Part shown: one piece after another, positions 2,724 to 32,000 of the stretch
Position numbering within the stretch: position 1 is the first letter of the stretch
Layout of the letters: every line of letters starts with the position of its first letter
Origin: Candidatus Saccharimonadota bacterium
GTDB taxonomy: Bacteria > Pseudomonadota > Gammaproteobacteria > Johnevansiales > Johnevansiaceae
Length of the DNA: 32,000 nucleotides
NCBI RefSeq assembly: GCF_000300075.1
Contig: NC_018677.1
Location: 150,001-182,000, forward strand
Reading direction: 5' to 3'
The notes under the pieces: model-generated
Told to the model about the DNA's origin: nothing
Databases searched by the model: none
Seen by the model: only the letters and a program-made list of their open reading frames with translations
Position numbers and translations under genes: made by a program

Positions 2724-2865
2724 AAAAGGTTTTGTGGAAAGCTGTGATAGGAGTGGAGAAGAAGCAAAAGTGTTAAAAGTTATTATTTGTTATAGGCAAT
2801 TAATTAATTTAAAGTTGAAATTTGTTAAAGGCTAAGTCTTTTGATAGCAAACATTGTATAAAATT

Positions 2866-2951
2866 GCCGAGCTGGTGAAAATGGTATACACGCAGGTTTT
2901 AGATGCCTGTGTCATAAGAATGACTTGGGGGTTCAAATCCCTCGCTCGGTA
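2866..2951 (+). tRNA. tRNA-Leu (anticodon UAG), class II with long variable arm
   Basis: Hand-folded cloverleaf. Acceptor GCCGAGC/GCTCGGT with G1-U72. Anticodon stem CAGGT/GCCTG with loop TTTAGAT. Variable-arm hairpin GTCAT-AAGA-ATGAC. T arm GGGGG-TTCAAAT-CCCTC. Discriminator A. No encoded CCA. Confidence 0.85.
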
Positions 2952-2990
2952 AAATATTGGTATAGGAAAAATAATATTAAAAATAATAGA

Positions 2991-3476
2991 TTGATTGAAG
3001 TGGATTGTGAAGGTTTTTTAAAAAGTATAAAGAATTGGAGTCCTTATGTGGGATACATAATAGCAAATAAAGAAGGCCGTAAACTTCATAAACCGCACTG
3101 GGAAATAATATTGTTATTACGTAAATTTTACGAAACATATAAAATAGCACCTAATATGGTAACTTTAATAAACGAACTTAAATTTATAAATTATAAAAAG
3201 GGAAATTCGATATATTTACTTAAAGTTTTTAGATCATATAAAAAAACAATGATAAAGAAAACCACTAGCACAAATAAAAAAGATTATAAAACAAAATATA
3301 AGATGACAGTAAAAGCAAAAACCACAAAAAAAACACGTTTGTTTACATACGTGCATAAAAACACAAACATTACAAAAAAGAAAGAATATATGCTTAAACT
3401 CTATATAAATGCAGAAAGTCCTGCTCGTATTGCAGCTAGAATAGCAGGATTGCCGAAACCCAATAATTGTATGTAA
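2991..3476 (+). CDS. tusE: sulfurtransferase TusE / DsrC-family protein with a large internal Lys/Thr/Asn-rich insertion; start codon uncertain
   Basis: Matches E. coli TusE: IEVDCEGFL, HWEIILLLRKFYETYKIAPNM, KGNSIYLLKVF, and the C-terminal PARIAARIAGLPKPNNCM with the conserved penultimate Cys. The ORF-track start (2925) lies inside tRNA-Leu. There is no in-frame ATG before the conserved core. Candidate starts are ATT 2976, TTG 2991 and GTG 3000. Confidence 0.75.
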   Translation: MIEVDCEGFLKSIKNWSPYVGYIIANKEGRKLHKPHWEIILLLRKFYETYKIAPNMVTLINELKFINYKKGNSIYLLKVFRSYKKTMIKKTTSTNKKDYKTKYKMTVKAKTTKKTRLFTYVHKNTNITKKKEYMLKLYINAESPARIAARIAGLPKPNNCM

Positions 3477-4061: not shown

Positions 4062-4477
4062 GTAACATTAAAGCTGTTCAAAAAAAAATTATAAAGGAAT
4101 TAAAGTTTTTTGATAACTGGATAGACCGTTATAAATATATACTTGATTTAGGTAAAAAATTGCCTTCAATGCCCGCTAAATGGAAAAAACCTAAATATCT
4201 TATTTCTGGTTGTCAATCTAATGTATGGATTCATCATAAATTTATTGATAATAAAGTTCATTTTATTGCTACTTCAGATGCATCAATAGTTTTAGGATTA
4301 ATTGCTATCATATTAAGAATTTATAATTATAGAAATCCAAGAGAAATTTTATCTACACCATTAGATATTGAAATGTTTGTAGATTTAGAACAACATTTAT
4401 CTATGACAAGACATAATGGATTGAAGGTTATGTTGTCACATATTTATTATATAGCATCTATCTATATAAGAACTTAG
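4058..4477 (+). CDS. sufE: cysteine desulfuration protein SufE/CsdE family
   Basis: 139 aa. It carries the SufE signature around the active Cys (ISGCQSNVWIHH versus E. coli IQGCQSQVWIV), plus SDASIVLGLIAI and HLSMTRHNGL. The start overlaps the nfuA stop (ATGA). Confidence 0.85.
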   Translation: MSNIKAVQKKIIKELKFFDNWIDRYKYILDLGKKLPSMPAKWKKPKYLISGCQSNVWIHHKFIDNKVHFIATSDASIVLGLIAIILRIYNYRNPREILSTPLDIEMFVDLEQHLSMTRHNGLKVMLSHIYYIASIYIRT

Positions 4478-4898
4478 GTGATATTATTGCTTTTTTTGCT
4501 ATGTTATTAGAATTGTTTAATAATTTGTTATAAAAACAACTAATACGTCCAGAATGACAAGAAGGGCCATATTGATCTACTTTAAATAAAAGAGTATCTC
4601 CATCACAGTCTAAATATATTTCTTTTAATAATTGTATATTTCCTGATTGTTCTCCTTTTAGCCAAGTTTTACATCTTGATCTAGACCAATAACAAACATA
4701 AATTCCAAGTTGTGTATCTAATAAAATAAATTTATTTATCCAAGCTAACATTAAGACTTCACCACTATCATATTGTTGAGTAATTACAGGTATTAACCCT
4801 TCTTGATTCCAATTTATAGATTCAATAACAATATCATTTAAATAGTTATCATCAACAATATAAAAGTCTATTGATTGAAATAAAATTCGTTGTTTCAT
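4458..4898 (-). CDS. hisI: phosphoribosyl-AMP cyclohydrolase (monofunctional HisI)
   Basis: 146 aa with GLIPVITQQYDSGEVLMLAWIN, YWSRSRCKTWLKGEQSGNIQ, LDCDGDTLLFKVDQ and PSCHSGRISCFY, all typical HisI motifs. It overlaps the sufE 3' end convergently by 20 nt. Confidence 0.9.
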   Translation of the reverse strand: MKQRILFQSIDFYIVDDNYLNDIVIESINWNQEGLIPVITQQYDSGEVLMLAWINKFILLDTQLGIYVCYWSRSRCKTWLKGEQSGNIQLLKEIYLDCDGDTLLFKVDQYGPSCHSGRISCFYNKLLNNSNNIAKKAIISPKFLYR

Positions 4899-5878
4899 AC
4901 TTTTAAAAATTTTTTAATAGATTTTTTTATAAATTCAAAATTTTTTGCTTTTGTTGTTAACAGATTCTTTACTATATTTTGCTTTTGTTAAACCGTTTTC
5001 TCAAACTTTTTCACTTTTAATACTTTTATCTATTACTTATTCACTTTTAACTTGTTTAGTACAACACTTTGTTTCTCATTTTGCCATTTATACTTTCTTT
5101 TTGTTATGTTCTGTTAAACTTTTACTTAAATTGGTCTTTATAACATAATCTTTTTTTTATTTCTTGATTTGAATTTAGTTTTTTTATAAATTTTACCTTA
5201 TTTTACTTTTTATTGGGTTTTATATACGTGTCTATTTGCCTGATGTTAACATATCTACATTGTTGTTTATTTTATTGTTTTACAATATACACCACTTTTC
5301 ATCATACAATATAAGTTTTATTCAACTTGATAACTCATACAATATAAGTTTTATTTTATACCTATTACAAAACCTATATTACACATCATTTCATTTAACA
5401 ATTTTTCAACACTTTTCTTATAACTCATACCATCATATACAACATATTCTTTTTTCCATTCCTATGAATACATCCGTTTATATAATAACCTATTTAACAA
5501 ATCAACCTTTTATCCACTAATACCTACCTTATAACACATATATTATACAATACATTACTTATAACACATCTACTTTTCTTTTCACTTTTTATATAACATC
5601 TAATTTTAAATTTAACGAAGTTACCAGCATAACAACTATTTTAAAAAACATATAAAATAAATAAAAGATCAACAATTATCAAATACACAACTATTTCTTA
5701 ACAAATAAACCTTTTACATAAACCATTTTTTCATATAGCATTTGCCTATTAAACACAAACCTTTTACACACAACAAAAAAATTTACTATTTAAAACTAAC
5801 CCACAACCTCATAAAAACATAAACAAACTACTACTAAACCCTAAACTACAAATCAAAACCTTTACATCAAACCAACAC

Positions 5879-5955
5879 CTCTAATTTTTATTGTTGTACT
5901 ACTTTAACACTTAACAACTCTAAAATTTATTGTTGTACTACTTTAACACTTAACA
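5879..5955. repeat. 39-bp tandem duplication (2 copies, 2 mismatches)
   Basis: CTCTAA(TT/AA)TTTATTGTTGTACTACTTTAACACTTAACA occurs at 5879-5917 and at 5918-5955. Confidence 0.9.
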
Positions 5956-6003
5956 CCAGAACTTAAAATCATACAAATCATTTTCCTAACACACAACTTT
6001 ATA

Positions 6004-6066
6004 AACTTCAAACTTCAAACTTCACAATTCACAATTCACAATTCACAACACACAACACACAACACA
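6004..6066. repeat. compound heptamer microsatellite (AACTTCA)3(CAATTCA)3(CAACACA)3
   Basis: Read directly from the sequence: three adjacent blocks of three copies each. Confidence 0.95.
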
Positions 6067-6682
6067 CAATACAAATTCATATCAACCATTACAACACACC
6101 TTTTCATTAGTATAGCATTACTCCTAATACAAGTTCATAATTAGTATTATAACATAAGCCATCAAAATATAAGCATATCACATAATACACAACAATATAA
6201 AATCATTTGTTTTAAAAAAAACAACAACGCCCATATTACACAATATTATTTAAACAACACAAAAAAAAGAACCTAAGAGCATAAAAAGAATAATCAAAAA
6301 ATGACCAAACAACACAATTTTTTACTACACATAATACAACAATGTTACAATCACAACACATTAAGCAAGCTCAAACACAAAGCAAATAATACAAAACACG
6401 ATTACAACGACACATAACAGTACACAAAAACTCACAAAATGCATAACAAATAAACCATCAAGTACAGAAAGCAGAACAACTAAAACATTTAACCTAAGTG
6501 CTAAACACATTTACACAAATAACCAAATAGTTATCATTTAATATTTAAATTGGTAAATACAAAAAACAACGGTATAATGCAAATTTTTAAATTAACTACA
6601 AAACAAATAAATATTAACCCACAAACACTTTTACACAAAATTTTTATTAACGAAATACATATTTTCTAACAAAACAACAATT

Positions 6683-6759
6683 CATAAACCATAAACCATA
6701 AACCACTAACCACTAACCACTAACCACTAAACACTAAACACCAAACACCAAACACCAAA
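6683..6759. repeat. compound heptamer microsatellite (CATAAAC)3(CACTAAC)3(CACTAAA)2(CACCAAA)3
   Basis: Read directly. Eleven contiguous 7-mers, with successive blocks differing by 1-2 substitutions. Confidence 0.95.
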
Positions 6760-6966
6760 CTAACTTCTTTAAACAATCATATAACTACTTTTCCTTTTAT
6801 TTATTTAACAACAAGTATTTATCAACAAGAAGTTTTAACCAAAATCGTAACACATAATACTAAACATAATTTTAAAAACCAGTTAAGTTACACAAATAAG
6901 CTAAAAATAAAAGCTTTTAAAACATACATCTTTAAAGTAAATATGTGAATAAAGATTTAACATAAC

Positions 6967-7040: not shown

Positions 7041-7219
7041 TATTCATACCTTGTATAATTATTATAGTTATATGTGTCTGCTCTTACGGTTACATAATAG
7101 AATAGCTTGTGTTTCTTAAAGTTAAAGATAAATGCATTTGCGTACTTATAATATTGTTGCGTGATACTTTTTTGATTGATGCATTTTTGTTGTTATGGTT
7201 TTACTTTTATATATATTTT

Positions 7220-7265
7220 TTTTATGTTTTATGTTTTATGTTTTATGTTGTTGTTGTTGTTGTTG
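7220..7265. repeat. microsatellites (TTTTATG)4(TTG)6
   Basis: Read directly from the sequence. Confidence 0.95.
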
Positions 7266-7626
7266 ATATATGTATTTTGTTTTTTATTTTTGATTTAGGT
7301 TGTTATCTTATGTGTATGTTTTATTTATGGTATATGTATTTTGATATTTGCTTTAGATATTGATTTATTTTGTTTACTTTGATATGTTGTATATTTACTG
7401 TTCTTCTTTATGTTATATTTATTTTTCTTTTTTTGTATATATTTTAAATATATGTTTTTTAAAAGTTTTTGTTATTTTTAAACCATTGATGTTCGTTAGT
7501 ATTTGTTTCTCTTGTTTACTGTTACTGTATTGTGCTTTTAGTTTTTGTTTTAAACCTGCTTTTATTTGTTGCTGTATGTGCCTTTTTCGCTTTATTTTTT
7601 TTATCTTTGTATTCCTGCTTATGTAT

Positions 7627-7684
7627 GCTGTTGCTGTTGCTGTTGCTGTTTGATGTTTGATGTGTGTTTTGTGTTTTGTGTTTT
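7627..7684. repeat. compound microsatellite (GCTGTT)4(TGATGTK)2(GTGTTTT)3
   Basis: Read directly. GCTGTT is the same hexamer family (phase-shifted GTTGCT) as the array at 23585-23704. Confidence 0.9.
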
Positions 7685-7995
7685 GTATTCCTTCTTGTGT
7701 GTGTTATGTATGCTGTTTGTGTTTTGTAATATGTTTGTATTTCTCATCGTTATGTACGTTGTTTTATGTTACGATTTTTGTTGAAATTTGTTTTGTTTTT
7801 CTTTTATTAATTTAGAGTAAAGTTGTATATTGATTACAAAAAAAAATGTATAACGTGAAATATAAAAAATAGTATGTTTAAGATGTGTATGGTGTAGATT
7901 GTTGTTGTTAAATTGATTATAGCAGTAGCAGTAGCAGTATTTGCAAAAAAAAAATAGCGAAAAATGTAAGTATAAGCAAAAATATGTTATATGGT

Positions 7996-9868: not shown

Positions 9869-12595
9869 TTATAAAGTTAATGGATTAATTTTTTTAGTAT
9901 TTATATCATATTTTGTTAAAGCTTTTTTTATAATAGACATATCTATTATTCCTTGGTTATGTAATGATTTTAAAGAAATTATTGTTATAAAATAACGATC
10001 TACTTCAAAAAAATAGCGTAATTTTTTCCGAGTATCTGATCTGCCATATCCATCTGTACCCAAAACATAATAATCATTTGGTACCCAAGCACGTACTTGA
10101 TCTGCATAAAGTTTTATATAATCTGTGCTTGCTATAACAGGGCTATTATATTTTTCTAAACATTTTGTTATCCATGGTTTTAGTGGAATTTGTGTTTCAC
10201 ACCTTAAAATGTTTTTTCTATCAAGTTCTACTGCTTCTCTTCTTAACTCATTAAAACTTGTCACACTCCACACATTAGATTCAATATTAAATTCATTTTT
10301 TAAAATATCAGATGCGTATTCTACTTCACGCAAAATGCTACCTGAGCCTAATAATTGTACTTGCAATTTTCTATTATTGTGTTTTATTTTAGTATATTTT
10401 TTTTGTGATGTATTTTTATACAACTTACTTTTGTTGTTTTTTTTGTTTGTTTGATGTAGTAAATACATTCCACGTATAATACCTTCTTTACAGTTGTTTT
10501 GTTTTTTTTGATGTAAATACTTTTCATTCATTAAACTTATATAATAATAACACTTTTCTTTATTTACATACATTTTTTTAAGACCATATTGCAATATAAC
10601 AGCTAATTCATAAGAATATGTTGGATCATAAGAACGACAACTTGGTATGATTGATGCTAAAACTTGACCTTGCCCGTCTTGATGTTGTAAACCTTCTCCG
10701 TTTAATGTTGTTCTCCCTGATGTACCTCCTAATAAAAATCCTCTTGATTGCAAATCACCGGCTGCCCAAGCTAAATCCCCTACTCTTTGAAAACCAAACA
10801 TTGAATAATAAATATAAAACGGTATTAATGTGTAACTATGATTTGCATAAGATGTTGCTGCGGCAATCCAACACGACATAGATCCAACTTCATTTATACC
10901 CTCTTCAATAAGTTGACCTTGTTTATCTTCTTTATAGTAAATCAATTTTTCTTTATCCATTGGTAAATACTTTTGTCCTTCTATTGAATAAATTCCTACT
11001 TTGCTAAACATAGTTTCCATTCCAAAAGTTCTAGCTTCATCTGGCAAAATAGGTACTATTCTTTTCCCTATATTTTTATTTTGCATTAAACTATTAATTA
11101 TACGCACACAAACCATTGTGGTAGAAACTTTTCTATTTCCTATATTATTTACAATTTTTTCAAAAATTGTCTTTTCCAAAGACTTAATATTCAATACAAA
11201 CAAACTTTCATTCCGTTTCGGTAAATATCCATTAAGGTTTTTTCGGCATTTGTGAATATATTTTATTTCTGGTGAATCTTCATCTGGTTTATAAAAAGGT
11301 ATATTATTTGTTTTTATCTTTTCATTTGTTATAGGAATTTCAAATTTATCTCTAAACCTTTTTAAGGCATTATAATCCATAGTCTTTACATTATGAGTTT
11401 CCATGCTTGATTCAAATTTATAAATACCATAACCTTTTATTGTGTGTGCTAATATAACTGTGGGTTTTCTATATGAATTATTCACAGCTTCATAATAAGC
11501 TGCATATATCTTTTGAGGATCGTGTCCACCTCTATTAAGATTTGAAATTTCTTTATATGATAAATTTTTCACCAAACTTGCTGTGTCTTTATATTTTCCA
11601 AACAACTGTTCTTTTGTATATTTGCCCCCTAAAGCTTGATACCTTTGATAATCCCCATCTACTGTATCATTTATACATTTCTGTAAAATTCCTTTCTTAT
11701 CGTGTTCGAATAACATATCCCAGTCACCTCCCCACACAACTTTAATTACATTCCAATTCGCTCCTTTAAATATTTGTTCTAATTCATCAATTATTTTACC
11801 GTTTCCACGCACTGGCCCATCTAATCTTTGTAGGTTACAATTTATCACAAATATCAAATTATCTAGTTTTTCTCTGCTTGCAACGTTAATTGCTCCTATT
11901 GTTTCTACCTCGTCACATTCCCCATCTCCTACAAAAGCCCATACTTTTCTATCTTTCATATTTTGTATACAACGGCAATCCATATATTTCATCAATCTAG
12001 CTTGATATATAGCCTGTAAAGGCCCGAGTCCCATAGAAACAGTGGGAAACTGCCAATACTTTGGCATTAAATATGGGTGGGGATATGCAGAAAGGCCTTG
12101 TCCTTTTATTTCTTTTCTAAAATTATTTAACTGATTTTCGGTTAAACGACTTTCTAGATAAGAACGTGCATATATTCCTGGAGCTACATGTCCTTGAAAA
12201 TATATTAAATCTCCTTCAAACTTATTATTTTTTCCTCTAAAAAAATGATTAAATCCTACTTCGTATAAAGTACAACTTGACATATAACTGGATATATGTC
12301 CCCCTAAATTGTTTTTTGTATTCGCTCTTATTATTAATGCTATCGTGTTCCACCTAACGGCAGACCTGATTTTTCTTTCCAAATATTTATTTCCTGGATT
12401 TCGTTTTTCACAACTTTTTGGTATTGTATTTTTATAATCATTATAATCTTTATTTAAAATATTGTTTTTAATTATATATTTCTTCTTTACATAATTTTTC
12501 ACTAAACTTTTTACCCTATACATACCCTCTCGATCCATGACCCTCTGTCTATTCTCCTTTTCTGTTCTCTGCTTTCTTATATATGATTGCTTCAT
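9869..12595 (-). CDS. aceE: pyruvate dehydrogenase E1 component
   Basis: 908 aa, collinear with E. coli AceE (887 aa): RSAVRWNTIALI, GGHISSYMS, YFQGHVAPGIYARSYLE, FVGDGECDE, NLQRLDGPVRGNGKII and VQLLGSGSILREV. It carries one extra Lys/Asn-rich segment. Confidence 0.95.
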   Translation of the reverse strand: MKQSYIRKQRTEKENRQRVMDREGMYRVKSLVKNYVKKKYIIKNNILNKDYNDYKNTIPKSCEKRNPGNKYLERKIRSAVRWNTIALIIRANTKNNLGGHISSYMSSCTLYEVGFNHFFRGKNNKFEGDLIYFQGHVAPGIYARSYLESRLTENQLNNFRKEIKGQGLSAYPHPYLMPKYWQFPTVSMGLGPLQAIYQARLMKYMDCRCIQNMKDRKVWAFVGDGECDEVETIGAINVASREKLDNLIFVINCNLQRLDGPVRGNGKIIDELEQIFKGANWNVIKVVWGGDWDMLFEHDKKGILQKCINDTVDGDYQRYQALGGKYTKEQLFGKYKDTASLVKNLSYKEISNLNRGGHDPQKIYAAYYEAVNNSYRKPTVILAHTIKGYGIYKFESSMETHNVKTMDYNALKRFRDKFEIPITNEKIKTNNIPFYKPDEDSPEIKYIHKCRKNLNGYLPKRNESLFVLNIKSLEKTIFEKIVNNIGNRKVSTTMVCVRIINSLMQNKNIGKRIVPILPDEARTFGMETMFSKVGIYSIEGQKYLPMDKEKLIYYKEDKQGQLIEEGINEVGSMSCWIAAATSYANHSYTLIPFYIYYSMFGFQRVGDLAWAAGDLQSRGFLLGGTSGRTTLNGEGLQHQDGQGQVLASIIPSCRSYDPTYSYELAVILQYGLKKMYVNKEKCYYYISLMNEKYLHQKKQNNCKEGIIRGMYLLHQTNKKNNKSKLYKNTSQKKYTKIKHNNRKLQVQLLGSGSILREVEYASDILKNEFNIESNVWSVTSFNELRREAVELDRKNILRCETQIPLKPWITKCLEKYNSPVIASTDYIKLYADQVRAWVPNDYYVLGTDGYGRSDTRKKLRYFFEVDRYFITIISLKSLHNQGIIDMSIIKKALTKYDINTKKINPLTL

Positions 12596-13480: not shown

Positions 13481-14650
13481 ATATTAACCTCTTTATTTAA
13501 AATATTATTTGTCAATTACAAGCCTACTTTTCTTTTTCGAGCAAATAACTAACATATTTTAACTTTTTGTAAATATTATTTATGCCGTATACATACAGCC
13601 ACTTTATTAGAATATACAATTGCCTTTTGTATTAATTTTTGATTCTTTTAACCTTTATTTTTAATTGTTGTATAACAACTAATTTTTGTATATAAATAGG
13701 TTCTTTTTTATTTAGTGGTATGTTATTTCTTCTGTGTTTTATGATATCTGTTTAATCTTTTCATCTGTATGATTTTTGCTTTCTGTTTTATATGTTTTTC
13801 TTTTTACTTTTTATCTGTTAGATGTTTATTTCTTTGATGTTTGATGTTTGATGTTTGATATTCTCTTTTTTCTTTGCCGTTTGTTGTTTTTTGTTTTGAG
13901 GTTAGTTATTAGAGGTTTGTTTTTTTTGATGTTGTTTGTAAGCTGTTAGAGGTAAGTTTAACTATGTTGTATCTTTTGTTAAATAGTTATTAGATGTTGT
14001 AGGATTGTTGTTAATTTATTAGATGTAAGAATTTAGATGTTGTAGGTTTGAGGTTTGATTTATTAGATGTTAAAATGTTAAATTAGTTGCTTTTTATGTT
14101 TGTTAGTTGTTAGAGGTTTGTTGAATTAGAGTTTATATGGTTTAAAAGAGTATTGTTTTTAGAAGTTTGCTTTCTTATTAGTTTTAGATATTGTTAGTTA
14201 TTGTGTTATATTAAAGAGTTTTGAAATTAATTTATTAGATGATGATGTTTGAGCTTTGCTTTATTGTTTGTTAACTGTGTATTATTAAACTAAATATACA
14301 ACATTTAAATCAATATTGTGTGGTTAGAGGAAAAACATTTGAAATTAAGAATAAAGGTATTAGAGGAAAGTTAAAAAGAAATTGTTTAAGGAATGTATTT
14401 TGTGTTTAAAGTTAGCCGTTTATAAGTTTTGTGTTTTGTGGTTAGTGTTAGAAGTTAGATAATTTGTGTTTATGTGATAGCTGTTATAATTCTAGAGATC
14501 TTGTTGTTATGTTTTGATATTTTTTGTGCTTACAATTTAGTTTTTGAGGTGTTGTTTGAGCTTAATTTTAATAATTTGTATTTTTTTTGTATTTCTTCTT
14601 TTATCTTTGTACAACTCTTTAATTTTCTTTTTAATTACTACAAACTTACA
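13481..14650. other. non-coding spacer arm, C-depleted (G/T/A-rich) on the + strand
   Basis: Hand count finds no C in 13974-14089. The motifs TTAGATGTT and TTAGAGGTT recur. There is no credible ORF. Confidence 0.85.
13835..13855. repeat. microsatellite (TGATGTT)3
   Basis: Read directly from the sequence. Confidence 0.9.
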
Positions 14651-16517
14651 AACAACAAGAAACAAATCAACCTCTAACAACTAACAACTAACAACTAACA
14701 ACTAACTACTAACTTCTAAATCCTAAATCCTAAATCCTAAATCCTAAATCCTCTACTAACTAACAACTAATAAAAGCAAACCTTTTAACCCTTTTAACAA
14801 CTTTTACTCTAAACTCTAACAATCCAACATCTAAACCATCTAAACTAGCTAACTTCTAATAATTAATAAAACAACCTCTTTTTTACCACCTCTCATCAAC
14901 AAACCTACAATTTTTCTTTTTTTTTATCAACATCTACTTAACCACTTTCAAACTATTTACCTACAACTCTTTCTACTATCCTCTAACCTTTTGCTACAAC
15001 CAATTACCTCTAATTAATTACACTCTATTCCTTTCTTTTCTTACAACACTACTTTTTTTTTTCAAAACTTCCCTATTATAACTTTTATACAACATCATTT
15101 TTTATATCTTACCTCTAACATTATTTGTTACTAATACAACATATAACTTAGTCTCAAAATAAATAAACAAACCTCTAATTTAAATAACAAATAACAGATA
15201 AGAAAACAAACCTCTAACCGTTAATAAATAAACTACAAATAAAACATCTATTTAATATACAATTTTATACAAATTATGCTTTATATATACAAACTACAAA
15301 CTCAAATTAAACAGCATCTAAATTAACTGTTTTTAATACAACTTATAGGGATATATATGAACTAATAAGAAAAACCATAATATAATACAACAACTAACAA
15401 AAAAGAATAATAAACCTCCACTATACAATATATAAATTAGAGCAACAACAATAAACAACTCCATAACATATAAACTCAAACAAGCAAAAAAAACAAGGCT
15501 ATAACATACACCATCAACTGAATAGAATAACATTATACAACACATTATTTAATAAGGCATACAAAAGTTATAAAAGTATATAACATAAAAGCAGAAGAGC
15601 AGAAAAGCAGAAGAAAAAAAGCAAGAAAAACCATCAAACTCTTAAAAAACATCAGAACTCAAACATACAAAATAAAAAGTAAAAAACATATAAAAACTCA
15701 AACATACAAACTAAAAAAAATAAACGACATCTAAATTCTAATTTCTAAACTCTAAAAGCTTAACAACATATTAAAATACATATATTAAGCATAAAAAAAA
15801 AGAAACAGAAAACTTAAACGCATAAGCGGAAAACATATTCTAATATAAGATTTAATACAAACCAAAAGAAAGAAATCATATTTAAATACTAACAACAAAG
15901 CACGTAAAGTGTACATACTAGCAAATATAATCAATAAAACAAAAAACCAACTAATTATAAACCTACATAACTAATAATCCTAACTATTATGTATATAAAT
16001 AAAACAACAATAATTCATAAAACACCTATCACTTATAACCTAACATAATATAAATACCAACATATACATAATAAAACAAAAACCTCAAAAACATAATGCT
16101 CAAACTATAACTTATATAAACAAAGAAATAACAAAATAAATAACAATCTAAACTAACAAACAAAATGATAACTTATAAAACACAATCATATAAAGAAAAA
16201 GAAAGTAAAAAAAATCAATCATAAACACCGACCATTTATCCTAACAACAAAACTTTTAACTTAAGCATAATAACAAACCCATTTAACAACATCCATGTAA
16301 ACAAATACATTTAACACAAAATAATAATAATGAAACCTAACTACAAAACCAATATCAAAGTCTTTTAATTACTTTTATTTTATTGAAAATGAACCTTAAT
16401 TAATCATAAAGATAAAAAGCTTAAGCATTAAAAAACTTTCAACAATTTATCTTTCAAACCCAATCCAATGAGAACGTTAGTAAATCTGTTAATTTTTTAA
16501 GCAAAACAGATACTATT
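14651..16517. other. non-coding spacer arm, G-depleted (A/C/T-rich) on the + strand
   Basis: Hand count finds no G in 14660-14775, 14849-14992 or 14994-15126. It carries reverse-complement versions of the motifs seen in the left arm (AACATCTAA, AACCTCTAA). Confidence 0.85.
14674..14750. repeat. compound heptamer microsatellite (CTAACAA)4 CTAACTA CTAACTT (CTAAATC)5
   Basis: Read directly. It lies just right of the polarity switch at about 14650. Confidence 0.95.
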
Positions 16518-23135: not shown

Positions 23136-23731
23136 TTAGCTATGTTTAAATACATCTGTATAACTAAGTTAATAACTGTTGAAAATGTAGTGATTTGTTA
23201 TTGATGTACATAGTATTTTGTATACATTATTAATATTTGTATTTGTTTTACTTATTATTTTTGTTAAACTGTTTTAGTACTTGGCAGTTATCAGTTATAT
23301 ATACTTATTTAATAAATGATTTCGGTTTAAAAATCTATATATATCTTTAATTTTTATATAGTATTGCCTTTTCTTGTTCATTTCTTATTGTTTACTATTC
23401 TTTAACTTTTTTTTTTATGTTAAGTTACAGAAATTCTTGTTTTTTTTATTTTAAGCTGGTATTTATTTGTTTTTTACGGTTTATATTAGTATTAGTATTA
23501 GTTAGGTATCGCTGTGAACTTTACCCGGTAATAAGATAGAATAGTTGCTATTAAGGTATTATGGTATGTTTTAGTAGTTACACAGTTACAGTTACAGTTG
23601 CCGTTGCCGTTGCCGTTGCAGTTGCCGTTGCCGTTACAGTTGCAGTTGCAGTTGCAGTTGCCGTTGCAGTTGCAGTTGCCGTTGCCGTTGCCGTTGCCGT
23701 TGCTAAAATATTATTAAAAGTATAATATAAA
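23136..23731. other. non-coding spacer, T/G-rich on the + strand (asymmetry less extreme than other spacers)
   Basis: No credible ORF. It contains (ATTAGT)3 at 23485-23502 and the 20-unit hexamer array. Confidence 0.75.
23585..23704. repeat. 20-unit hexanucleotide array GTTRCN (GTTACA, GTTGCC, GTTGCA, GTTGCT interleaved)
   Basis: Unit order read directly: ACA ACA GCC GCC GCC GCA GCC GCC ACA GCA GCA GCA GCC GCA GCA GCC GCC GCC GCC GCT, each preceded by GTT. It is locally about 50% GC in an AT-rich context. Confidence 0.95.
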
Positions 23732-28844: not shown

Positions 28845-29918
28845 ATTTTTTTACCTTTTTAACAAATTTTATTTTTTATCACAACTTACCCATACCTTTA
28901 CTCATTCCTTTCAGATTTTAGCAACTTTAACAACAAGCCTTTTTAACTGCTTTAATAACTATTTTTTATAACTACAATTCCTATTACATAGTTTTTGTTT
29001 TATTTATTTCATATAACATAAAGTTTACAAATCATTACCACATATTACTTTTTTCAGATCTTATAAAAATAACCTTACAACTGTTTAAGTTATTACAACA
29101 AACTAACACATTATCTAGTTCTCTTTTTATTATCATAATAAAAAACTACCGTTTTACAACAAACTAAACTAACACATATTACTTTTTCCTTTTATACTTT
29201 CATAACGGCCTTTATTCAAATGTTCCTTTTTTTAGAACATATCTTACACTTATCACAAACTACGCCTCACTTCCTTTAAACTCGCATAACAACTTTTACC
29301 TATACTCATATTTTTTTCGTTTATCATATTGTATTTTAACTCTATGTCTTAACAAAAAACTTTTGGCATAAATAAACTACCACTTAACCTTTAACAACAA
29401 CCAAATACTATCTTTTAACATCAATTTAATCTATCGCATAAACACTACACCATTTCCTTTTTGTTATATACAAACTTTTACTTTATTTTAGCATTTACCT
29501 ATTAAACACCTTTACTACAAACTATACTTCTAATACCAATCCTCTTACATACTTCTTTACGCTTCAACTACCCTTTTTAACCATTTATACATGCCGTTAA
29601 TAACACAATACAACTAGTTTTACTATATACTAACAAACACCACACCGTTTAACACAAATCAAACTACACTGCCCATCAAACATCAAAATCTACTTGTTAC
29701 CAGCTTACATACATATTACACAAAAACACAAAACATAAATGCTTGCACAAAAACACCTTTACCTATCACCTCTTTTATTTTTCATAAAAACAAGTTATAT
29801 AAACAACTTTAGCTGTTAACATTTAACCATTTAACTATACATTAATATAACCAATATACCGTATAAAACAAAGATAAAACATAAACACATCAAAAACCAA
29901 ACATAAATTATAAATTAT

Positions 29919-29974
29919 CTAACTGCTAACTGCTAACTGCTAACATCTAACATCTAACATCTAACATCTAAAAA
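29919..29974. repeat. compound heptamer microsatellite (CTAACTG)3(CTAACAT)4 CTAAAAA
   Basis: Read directly from the sequence. Confidence 0.95.
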
Positions 29975-31262
29975 ATAACCTTTATTATCTAACATCTACC
30001 CTTTTAAACAAAGCATCAAACAGCTATTAACAAACACAACACTATCAATCTATCATATTAAAAACAGCTAACACGTTTTATCTTTAACAAATACAACTAC
30101 ATTTCATAATATAAAATCATAAAAATAGATTGTTTTACACAAAAACAGCAAATACAAAATAAAACTATTATGTTGTAATACAACTAACAATACTTCTAAA
30201 AAAAAAACTACATTTTATAGAAACACAATAAACTACAACACAATATTAAATAAGTTTAATACGAAATACCAAATAACTTTGATAGTTTTGTGTACAACTT
30301 TATCTGTTAACAATTAAATTTTAACAAACCACAACACATAATACCAAGCAGCAAAGCCCAAACTGATACTAATGTTTTTTAGCGATAAACTTTTTTAATT
30401 ATAAATATTTTTTTAGCAAACAGCCTAAAATCAAAACAATTTTCATAACTGCTTACACAACTCATCCTACATCCTACCAGCAATACTGCTTGCACTTTTA
30501 CATAACACACTTTTTTTTTAAACAGCTCAGCATGTTTGCTTTTTTTTTTACAATAGCTTCACTTTTAGTCAGTCTAAATTTAAATATAACCTTTTTAAAG
30601 ATCCTACACCATTAAAGATACAACTCTAATAAATTTCATATAACCTTACATTAGTTACAGTACAAAATATAAATTACAAAACTTGTAACCGATTTAAATA
30701 CATTACAAAATTTAAACATAATATGGCATAACTGACTTCACCACATATAACGTAATATAAGTTTTTTAAAAAATAAACAAAAGAACATATTTTATTAAAC
30801 ATTTATACAACAATTTTTAACATATAACCTTAGTCATATACTATAAACTAGTGTGTATAAAAAAAAAACAGTAAAGCACAAATTTTAGAATACAATTTTC
30901 AATTACATTACCTAATACACACCAACATAAACTTTTAAACAAAAAAAATATATATTCCTGCAAAACCTTAATTTCTTGCACAATTTATTTTTTATAATAT
31001 ATATAATATTTACACTTATCTATACCTCATCCATTATGTACCAGCTCGTATAATTTCATACAGACCTATTTTTTTCCCTTAATAACATATACAGCCATAC
31101 TCCTGTATTATACACAATATTTTTATACAACTTCTTTGCTCTCTATACATTATTTAAATAACTATGTTATAAGATACACAACCGTTAACATACATCTAAT
31201 ACCCGTATTATATATAACCTATACCAATTAGCAATTAGCCGTGCTCTTACTAATCCAGCACA

Positions 31263-31316
31263 CAACTAACAACTAACAACCAACAACCGCTAACCGCTAA
31301 CCGCTAACCGCTAATG
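31263..31316. repeat. compound microsatellite (CAACTAA)2 CAACCAA CAACCG (CTAACCG)3 CTAATG
   Basis: Read directly from the sequence. Confidence 0.9.
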
Positions 31317-31508
31317 CATTACATATCCACAAAATTACAACAATTAGCATATTACAGACATAAAAACATAAAATACTATAACTTAACAAAGATGATTCAG
31401 CCTACAACATTATTCTAATTATTTTTTGTTTAACTAGCATAACTTAAATAAACTTTTCATGTAACATACACTTTAACACAATAATAAACTATAAACGCCT
31501 GTATACCA

Positions 31509-31562
31509 ATTTTTTGCATTATCTAATAGTTAGCATACCTATTTTTTGCATTATCTAATAGT
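31509..31562. repeat. 22-bp direct repeat, 32-bp period
   Basis: ATTTTTTGCATTATCTAATAGT occurs at 31509-31530 and at 31541-31562. Confidence 0.9.
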
Positions 31563-32000
31563 CTTGAATCTATTAACCATCATAATTTTTCAATATGTAG
31601 TATGTAATATATGCTTTGAGCTTTATGTATCGCTGTTTGCTGTTTGCTGTTTTTCTTTTAGGTGTACACATTTCCTATTCTTTATATAAAAATTTTTGTG
31701 TTGTTCAAACAACTATTTCTTTCTGTCTTTTATATAATAACTATAAATTAGTAAATAACATACATATAAGCGAATACCATAGCTACTATTTAACCTACCT
31801 ACTTTATTTAACAAATACAACTTATATTACCTACTTTATATAACATATTTAATAGATTTTAAAACTCATAAAACATAAGAATACTTAAATACTTGTGTAT
31901 AATTTTTAGGAATATAAAAGAAAAGAAAACAAAGAAAGTACAAAAGAATAGTAAAAACATATTAGTAACAAACAGTTAAAATGTAATAACAGTAAATAGT

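Follow-up and report, generated by a model that had tools for sequence, protein, structure and literature searches.

A probable in-frame low-complexity expansion of the hinge loop in TusE of Bemisia-associated Portiera

The DNA analysed here, which we call the window, is a stretch of 32,000 nucleotides from NC_018677.1 (RefSeq assembly GCF_000300075.1, positions 150,001 to 182,000 of the forward strand). The gene in question is tusE, whose product is 99–100% identical to the TusE/DsrC-family models of Candidatus Portiera aleyrodidarum from Bemisia tabaci, and the window belongs to this whitefly symbiont. Within this gene, 63 in-frame codons stand where free-living relatives have a turn of a few residues. 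Most likely they represent a lineage-specific, low-complexity expansion of the hinge loop just before the C-terminal helix and the swinging arm. The segment had been singled out in a preliminary description made from the DNA letters alone, and its position (3231–3419), its length and the peptide quoted from it proved exact. The features on which the argument depends are listed here, with residues numbered in the translation from TTG 2991.

2865..2952, + strand: tRNA-Leu(UAG), adjoining tusE upstream (ARAGORN, Rfam).
2991..3476, + strand: coding sequence of tusE, a sulfur carrier of the TusE/DsrC/DsvC family, 161 codons plus stop (Pfam, TIGRFAM).
2991..3230, + strand: conserved TusE core, residues 1–80, with GNSIYLLKVF as its last helix (PDB alignment to DsrC 1yx3, residues 3–80; AlphaFold; substitution ratios).
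3231..3419, + strand: in-frame insertion of 63 codons (RSYKKT...YINAES), Lys/Thr-rich and mostly disordered by prediction.
3347..3419, + strand: 3' part of the insertion (TACGTGCAT...CTCTATATAAATGCAGAAAGT), homologous to the 3' end of a longer insert in the Portiera sequence L001 and containing a weakly predicted helix (residues 127–139).
3420..3473, + strand: conserved C-terminal helix and flexible arm PARIAARIAGLPKPNNCM (invariant columns, PDB alignments, prediction confidence).
3468–3470, + strand: Cys160, the penultimate residue and persulfide carrier (family alignment).
3474–3476, + strand: stop codon of tusE.

The insert has well-defined limits. The codon of F80 closes at 3230, and the insert extends from R81 (first base 3231) to S143 (last base 3419), followed by P144 from 3420, which gives 63 codons or 189 nt between the helix ending in YLLKVF and the C-terminal helix and arm. 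Alignments to Pfam DsrC, to TIGR03342 and to DsrC/TusE structures in the PDB all stop at about residue 80–85 and restart at about 143. The identical open reading frame occurs on more than 30 independent contigs (NCBI, Logan, ENA and JGI), and therefore the insert is not an assembly error.

Comparison with relatives indicates that the insertion is lineage-specific and not ancestral. The preliminary description had put about 3 residues at this position in E. coli TusE, and all 32 free-living gammaproteobacterial sequences that we aligned have 2–3 (LFPG-SPAK). Seven Portiera TusE proteins from hosts of other genera (two Aleurodicus species, Trialeurodes, Pealius and unnamed hosts) are 104–118 residues long; all seven read LFTSKTLESPARI at the site (YLLKLF-TSKTLES-PARI), and the B. 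tabaci insert extends about 56 codons beyond their TSKTLES linker. Portiera of Singhiella simplex (L008) reads LFNSLSLESPA, with the linker NSLSLES and without the long insert. At the identical site, L001 (ENA ERZ27294174 / SRR10613586) has an insert of 152 codons, and its gene order, tRNA-Leu-tusE-nfuA-sufE-hisI, is that of the window. Linker length thus runs from 2–3 residues in free-living bacteria through 7 in other Portiera to 63 in B. tabaci Portiera and 152 in L001, the last two differing 2.4-fold. The preliminary description had raised the possibility of an ancestral segment widespread in the family, and the family and orthologue alignments speak for lineage specificity instead.

The two long inserts are homologous at both ends. 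At the 5' end, L001 has NSYNKKN... and B. tabaci RSYKKT..., with shared sequence from 3231 to about 3265; at the 3' end, DNA and protein alignments pair ...YVHQNTNNTNKKQKLYIDAES in L001 with ...YVHKNTNITKKKEYMLKLYINAES in B. tabaci. The shared ends argue for a single ancestral insertion, which would have arisen once, after the split from Singhiella and before that of the B. tabaci and L001 lineages. Across the B. tabaci complex, TusE occurs in two amino-acid variants only and in no length variants. Singhiella simplex is basal in the tribe Aleurolobini, and in this tribe (Singhiella, Aleurolobus, Bemisia) dnaQ and other replication and repair genes were lost at least 70 million years ago (PMC7821994, PMC12911140). 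L001 itself is probably from Bemisia afer or a close relative: between infC and proS, at 5212–6909, it encodes a 565-residue ABCD-like ABC transporter (PF06472, SbmA_BacA, ABC_tran) of a kind reported to be intact only in B. afer Portiera (PMC12911140), this one shared gene being the basis of the assignment.

The Singhiella gene (L008, 9965–10279) is unusual in other respects. Its conserved N-terminal residues, about 17 of them, are replaced by an in-frame MKMKMKMK run encoded by (GAAAAT)n, and its product ends ...PKPKYCNAVVM, with five extra residues after the Cys, so that this residue is no longer penultimate. The gene lies isolated in several kilobases of G-depleted spacer, with nfuA, sufE and hisI not adjacent, and it is possibly a pseudogene.

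In both Bemisia lineages the insert leaves the reading frame uninterrupted and the C-terminal Cys is preserved, as the preliminary description had stated for the window. The B. tabaci insert has no stop codon in frame and 1–7 in each of the five other frames; the L001 insert has none in frame and 6–16 in the others. Dinucleotide shuffling yielded a stop-free sequence in 0.37% of trials with the B. tabaci insert and in 0 of 20,000 with that of L001; of the 63-codon windows drawn from the window's spacers, 1.7% are free of stops. Between B. tabaci and L001 the ratio of non-synonymous to synonymous divergence (dN/dS) in the tusE core is 0.25 (dN 0.091, dS 0.36), by a simple Nei-Gojobori count on about 95 codons; the neighbouring nfuA and sufE give 0.21 and 0.11. 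The window protein retains 21 of 21 family-invariant residues, the penultimate Cys160 included, and I151, G153, L154, P155, P157 and C160 are invariant over 39 aligned sequences. Together, these comparisons indicate that tusE is under purifying selection in the B. tabaci and L001 lineages while bearing the insert. The insert itself has changed faster, with a non-synonymous divergence of 0.285 in its alignable part, about three times the 0.091 of the core, and a middle that is unalignable. What selection visibly maintains in the insert is the open frame leading to the essential C-terminal arm.

The preliminary description envisaged a highly basic, probably disordered loop tolerated within a small protein, and proposed structure prediction as a check; both the residue content and the predicted structure agree. 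Of the 63 residues, 18 are Lys, 12 Thr, 6 Tyr and 4 Asn, in line with the earlier remark that residues with A/C-rich codons (Lys, Thr, Asn) dominate, and the segment has a net charge of +17 and an isoelectric point of 10.3. AlphaFold2, run with the 39-sequence alignment, returned a predicted local distance difference test (pLDDT) score of 93–97 over residues 1–80, about 90–93 over the PARIAARI helix and more than 90 over about 141–155. Scores fall below 50 over insert residues 86–124, and a weak helix at 127–139 reaches 50–58. The arm of DsrC is flexible, so low confidence is expected there, and the C-terminal arm of the model scores 55. The top Foldseek matches, 1yx3 (DsrC) and 7syb (a DsrC-family sulfurtransferase), have a probability of 1.00 and target-normalised template modelling (TM) scores of 0.80–0.86; with DsrAB-bound DsrC chains included, the scores span 0.72–0.86. 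The insert is probably a disordered surface loop at the hinge of a confidently predicted DsrC/TusE core. In the model it would replace the tight turn between the last two helices, and its ends are adjacent, so the core would be left undisturbed.

Family membership of the interrupted protein is clear at the level of the domain. PF04358 (Pfam DsrC) scores 86.8 bits against a cutoff of 24.9, and TIGR03342 scores 93.5 bits against 53.5, each match being split in two pieces around the insert. The NCBIfam TusE equivalog PRK11508 scores 66.8 bits, below its cutoff of 191, and the protein is divergent as well as interrupted. The arm PARIAARIAGLPKPNNCM ends in AGLPKPNNCM, which fits GLPKPxxC-x with a penultimate Cys, and it is of the single-Cys kind: the PDB alignment places an Ala where the second Cys of DsrC (PAKQACRFAGLPKPTGCV), about 11 residues upstream, aligns. 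The name TusE thus follows from family membership, the single-Cys arm and database annotation, and should be taken as probable. Models of the gene disagree on its start codon, which is an annotation issue in the databases. Candidate starts are ATT 2976, TTG 2991 and GTG 3000, and the real start probably lies between 2976 and 3000. A database model of 183 residues begins at TTG 2925, within the tRNA-Leu gene, and further gene calls are 158, 170 or 142 residues long. The tRNA gene limits how far upstream the start can lie, and it stands in the same place before tusE in L001.

To ask where the inserted codons came from is to compare them with the DNA between genes. Spacers in the window are long and rich in short tandem repeats, a 7-bp period being the commonest. 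For B. tabaci Portiera, spacer expansion driven by microsatellites with 7-bp repeats has been described (Sloan and Moran 2013, PMC3673631), and the genome instability of the lineage has been linked to dnaQ loss (Santos-Garcia et al. 2020, PMC7821994). The preliminary description likened the insert to these spacers as A/C-rich and G-depleted, and the first of these properties stands. Base frequencies are A.571, C.138, G.101 and T.190 in the insert, against A.41, C.10, G.16 and T.33 in the tusE core. The A+C content of the insert of 0.709 lies at the 95.6th percentile among all 189-nt windows of the + strand, and on the coding strands of 16 window genes only one further segment, an insertion in aceE, is equally A/C-rich. 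C exceeds G on the coding strand of the insert, the opposite of what is found in the tusE core and in five tabulated + strand coding regions. The second property, G-depletion, holds only partly for the B. tabaci copy, which is mildly G-poor, and is considered below.

A third-order Markov classifier that sets window spacers (A/C-rich strand) against window coding sequences separates the two inserts. At +0.012 per nt, the B. tabaci insert outscores each of the 574 coding windows but falls short of 99% of spacer windows; the score of the L001 insert, +0.104, lies within the spacer range (mean 0.135, standard deviation 0.061). The L001 insert contains 2.9% G. In it a 75-bp unit is present in 2.7 copies with perfect 28-nt copies, further repeats have periods of 6, 12, 21 and 24 (and, in one weak row, of 10), and 121 repeated 8-mers compare with 74 expected (p < 1/3000). 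These periods are mostly multiples of three, whereas the spacers mostly have 7-bp units. In composition, the L001 insert is fully spacer-like, and that of B. tabaci falls between coding and spacer DNA. The earlier suggestion that the spacer-generating process also acts inside genes is thus supported in part: the L001 copy agrees with it in G content, Markov score and repeats, and the B. tabaci copy is only intermediate and shows no significant repeats.

We propose the following history. In the Portiera lineage of Bemisia, in a genome that had already lost dnaQ along with further genes for replication and repair, and in which short tandem repeats were expanding, the expansion process known from the spacers would have acted on the hinge linker of the ancestor, where AAA ACT was already present among the codons. 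Replication slippage or tandem duplication is the likely mechanism. Variants that broke the frame, added stop codons or encoded hydrophobic sequence would have been purged by selection, a filter that is visible in part in the stop-free frames. The outcome would be an A-rich loop, in which the A/C-rich polarity, the only one on which events would have survived, yields hydrophilic residues such as Lys, Asn, Thr and Tyr. In B. tabaci the copy would be old, eroded and now stable, and in L001 the result of more recent growth. With the ends of the insert meeting at a turn that is normally a tight 2–3 residues, the DsrC-type core and the Cys arm could still form. The protein presumably still passes persulfide sulfur toward tRNA 2-thiolation, with the insert most likely carried along as neutral ballast.

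Several observations weigh against this account. The B. tabaci insert contains 10% G where spacers have 3–7%, and its dominant trait is A-richness. It shows no excess of repeated 8-mers (p = 0.45); an excess of AAAAC is weak (p about 0.03, uncorrected), a period-12 match is also weak (score 35), there are no 7-bp repeats, and similarity to any spacer of the window was not found. With neither significant repeats nor spacer similarity in the B. tabaci copy, the case for slippage comes from its L001 homologue. On the side of constraint, the core dN/dS is the small count described above. A comparison of two B. tabaci strains is uninformative: the insert has 0 changes where 0.9–4.7 are expected, the expectation depending on the spacer chosen, and the flanking spacers have apparent rates five-fold apart, partly through misalignment around indels. 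Finally, the visibly degenerate tusE of Singhiella Portiera suggests that some members of the tribe may be able to do without the gene.

A bolder possibility is that the expansion process in dnaQ-less Portiera makes new polypeptide segments within essential genes, and that the TusE loop has been co-opted, for example as a tether that binds tRNA or a partner and offsets lost components of the relay. We regard this as unlikely. If it were true, such segments would have persisted at least since the two Bemisia Portiera lineages split, and bacterial protein sequence would have been born from DNA of a non-genic type. The narrower proposal, that the insert has gained a function as a basic tether for tRNA or a partner, or by giving the Cys arm a longer reach that makes up for lost relay components, is distinctly unlikely. 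It would fit the strong positive charge, the maintenance of the frame in two lineages, the constant length within the B. tabaci complex, and the 3' third that is conserved with L001 and includes the weak helix; the aligned insert columns also give a dN/dS of 0.21, from an alignment that is unreliable. Counter to this, the two copies differ 2.4-fold in length (63 and 152 codons) around an unalignable low-complexity middle, the insert diverges faster than the core at non-synonymous sites, and prediction confidence is below 50 across most of it. Its composition matches the mutational bias seen in the spacers, and the need to reach the essential C-terminal Cys fully explains why the frame is kept. 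A search of the literature and of supplements, the latter holding no gene lists, found no link of Portiera with tusBCD, tusA or mnmA.

Alternatively, tusE could be decaying, its frame having stayed open by chance so far, as the preliminary description had also allowed. The degenerate Singhiella gene, with its MKMKMK N-terminus and displaced Cys, the TusE equivalog score below cutoff and the elevated substitution rates of the lineage (PMC3673631) are what such decay might look like. Stop-free runs of 63 and 152 codons are, however, improbable by chance (p about 0.004 and less than 1 in 20,000, respectively), the core dN/dS is 0.25 in the comparison of B. tabaci with L001, the invariant residues are all intact, and TusE is near-identical throughout the B. 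tabaci complex. We therefore consider decay very unlikely. It is barely credible that an assembly artefact or a discrete element, foreign or self-removing (such as an intein, an intron, a mobile element or a segment bypassed in translation), accounts for the segment, its sharp boundaries within a conserved gene notwithstanding: Rfam recognises no family in or near it, its RNA folds no better than shuffles (z = 0.39), DsrC is the sole protein domain detected, intein-type splice-junction residues were not seen on reading the sequence, its 63 residues fall, to our knowledge, below the length of known inteins, no terminal or flanking repeats and no similarity elsewhere in the window were found, and the sequence recurs on the independent contigs noted above.

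Three more specific origins or roles were tried and rejected. The insert was not copied from a spacer of the window: its best match elsewhere in the window reaches 53, and shuffled sequences score 46.8 on average and up to 58. A look-alike motif at the end of the insert, EYMLKLY, which HMMER aligns to the same DsrC segment, suggested a tandem duplication of the neighbouring YLLKVF helix; this is unsupported by local alignment of core and insert DNA, which scores 21 where shuffles average 22.4 (p = 0.72). An embedded promoter, terminator or RNA element finds no Rfam match, the fold score is unremarkable as given above, and promoter-like sites are fewer than in shuffles.

With the canonical TusE/DsrC carriers (E. 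coli TusE; PDB 1yx3, 7syb and 2v4j chain C) the Portiera protein shares family hidden Markov model scores above the DsrC and TIGR03342 cutoffs, the predicted fold and the GLPKPxxC-x arm, and it is of the single-Cys TusE type and not the two-Cys DsrC type. It differs in having a 63-residue basic loop in place of a tight 2–3-residue turn and in falling below the strict TusE equivalog cutoff. With the spacer expansion of B. tabaci Portiera (PMC3673631, PMC7821994) the insert shares the clade, Aleurolobini without dnaQ, and a strand bias of A/C-rich against G/T-rich; tandem repeats and lineage-specific length change are shared by the L001 copy. In contrast to the spacers, the segment lies in coding sequence with its frame held open by selection, its periods are mostly multiples of three where the spacers have a 7-bp spike, and repeats can no longer be detected in the B. 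tabaci copy, which is stable and only mildly G-poor.

A further parallel comes from Plasmodium falciparum and other extremely AT-rich genomes, in which conserved proteins carry Lys/Asn-rich low-complexity inserts. These are in-frame, lineage-specific, hydrophilic, disordered surface loops that are attributed to slippage and vary in length among close relatives. The Portiera TusE insert resembles them in frame, lineage specificity, hydrophilicity and length variation. It differs in that such inserts are apparently rare in Portiera, an endosymbiotic bacterium whose genome measures about 358 kb, and in the prominence of Thr and Tyr, because the bias is toward A+C and not simply A+T. The mutational background of inserts in AT-rich genomes is treated in PMC5389722.

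In-gene inserts indeed look rare in this genome. Among about 25 genes whose lengths could be compared, tusE and one segment of aceE stand out, and the products of aroC, leuC, nfuA, sufE and hisI in the window and of about 10 genes in L001 have the lengths of their orthologues in stable Portiera. The aceE segment, which is missing from E. coli E1p and Halomonas AceE, has an A/C-rich coding strand and short tandem repeats at 10429–10452. Looking for AceE orthologues in Portiera brought up only incomplete proteins from outside Portiera.

~10382..10450 (approximate), - strand: Lys/Asn-rich in-frame insertion of 20–23 residues in aceE, codons ~716–738 (composition scan).

The most spacer-like coding segment lies in pnp at about 155–400 (codons ~51–130), with a Markov score of about 0, and looks like a degenerate, low-complexity helical domain of PNPase. 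Near tusE, hisI (4458–4898, - strand) has a dN/dS of about 1.5 against L001 (dN 0.085, dS 0.057; a small sample), with neighbours at 0.1–0.25.

The spacers are strand-biased: one strand is nearly without G or without C (3–7%), and the polarity flips between spacers and even within them. A word search found 'skew' absent from the main papers on Portiera instability, and the bias may be undescribed so far. It occurs in the following places.

1600–2860, 5000–6960, 7045–7990, 13500–16500 (polarity switch near 14,500) and 28850–32000: strand-biased spacers of the window.
L001 13200–14700 (GC skew to -1.00) and L008 7600–15200: strand-biased spacers of relatives.

Among other repeats in the window are a perfect 37-bp tandem repeat of 2.4 copies at 2635–2723, upstream of tRNA-Leu, and a (CAGTTG) array of about 20 copies at 23583–23703, between gyrA and secA. 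Downstream of hisI, the 2-kb spacer at 4899–6960 occupies a place where L001 has sohB, and L004 and L005 have sohB and then rnt. Searches with tblastn for remnants of sohB or rnt in this spacer gave E-values above 1 throughout, and the spacer is therefore no recognisable pseudogene.

A text search of the Portiera genome papers found neither the tusE insert nor in-frame insertions mentioned. The insert is thus unreported, but it is an ordinary by-product of the known genome instability of the lineage, and our understanding of sulfur relay or of endosymbiont evolution is unchanged by it. In practical terms, the insert is a possible length marker among the Portiera lineages of Bemisia. For the biology of the organism, it would be a case in which the mutational process known between the genes of an unstable endosymbiont genome extends into a gene. 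What gets past selection there would be an insert at a permissive hinge, with a length divisible by three and of the hydrophilic A/C-rich polarity. For the family, it points to a considerable tolerance in TusE, a protein of about 100 residues that apparently carries a loop of 63–152 residues directly before its functional arm.

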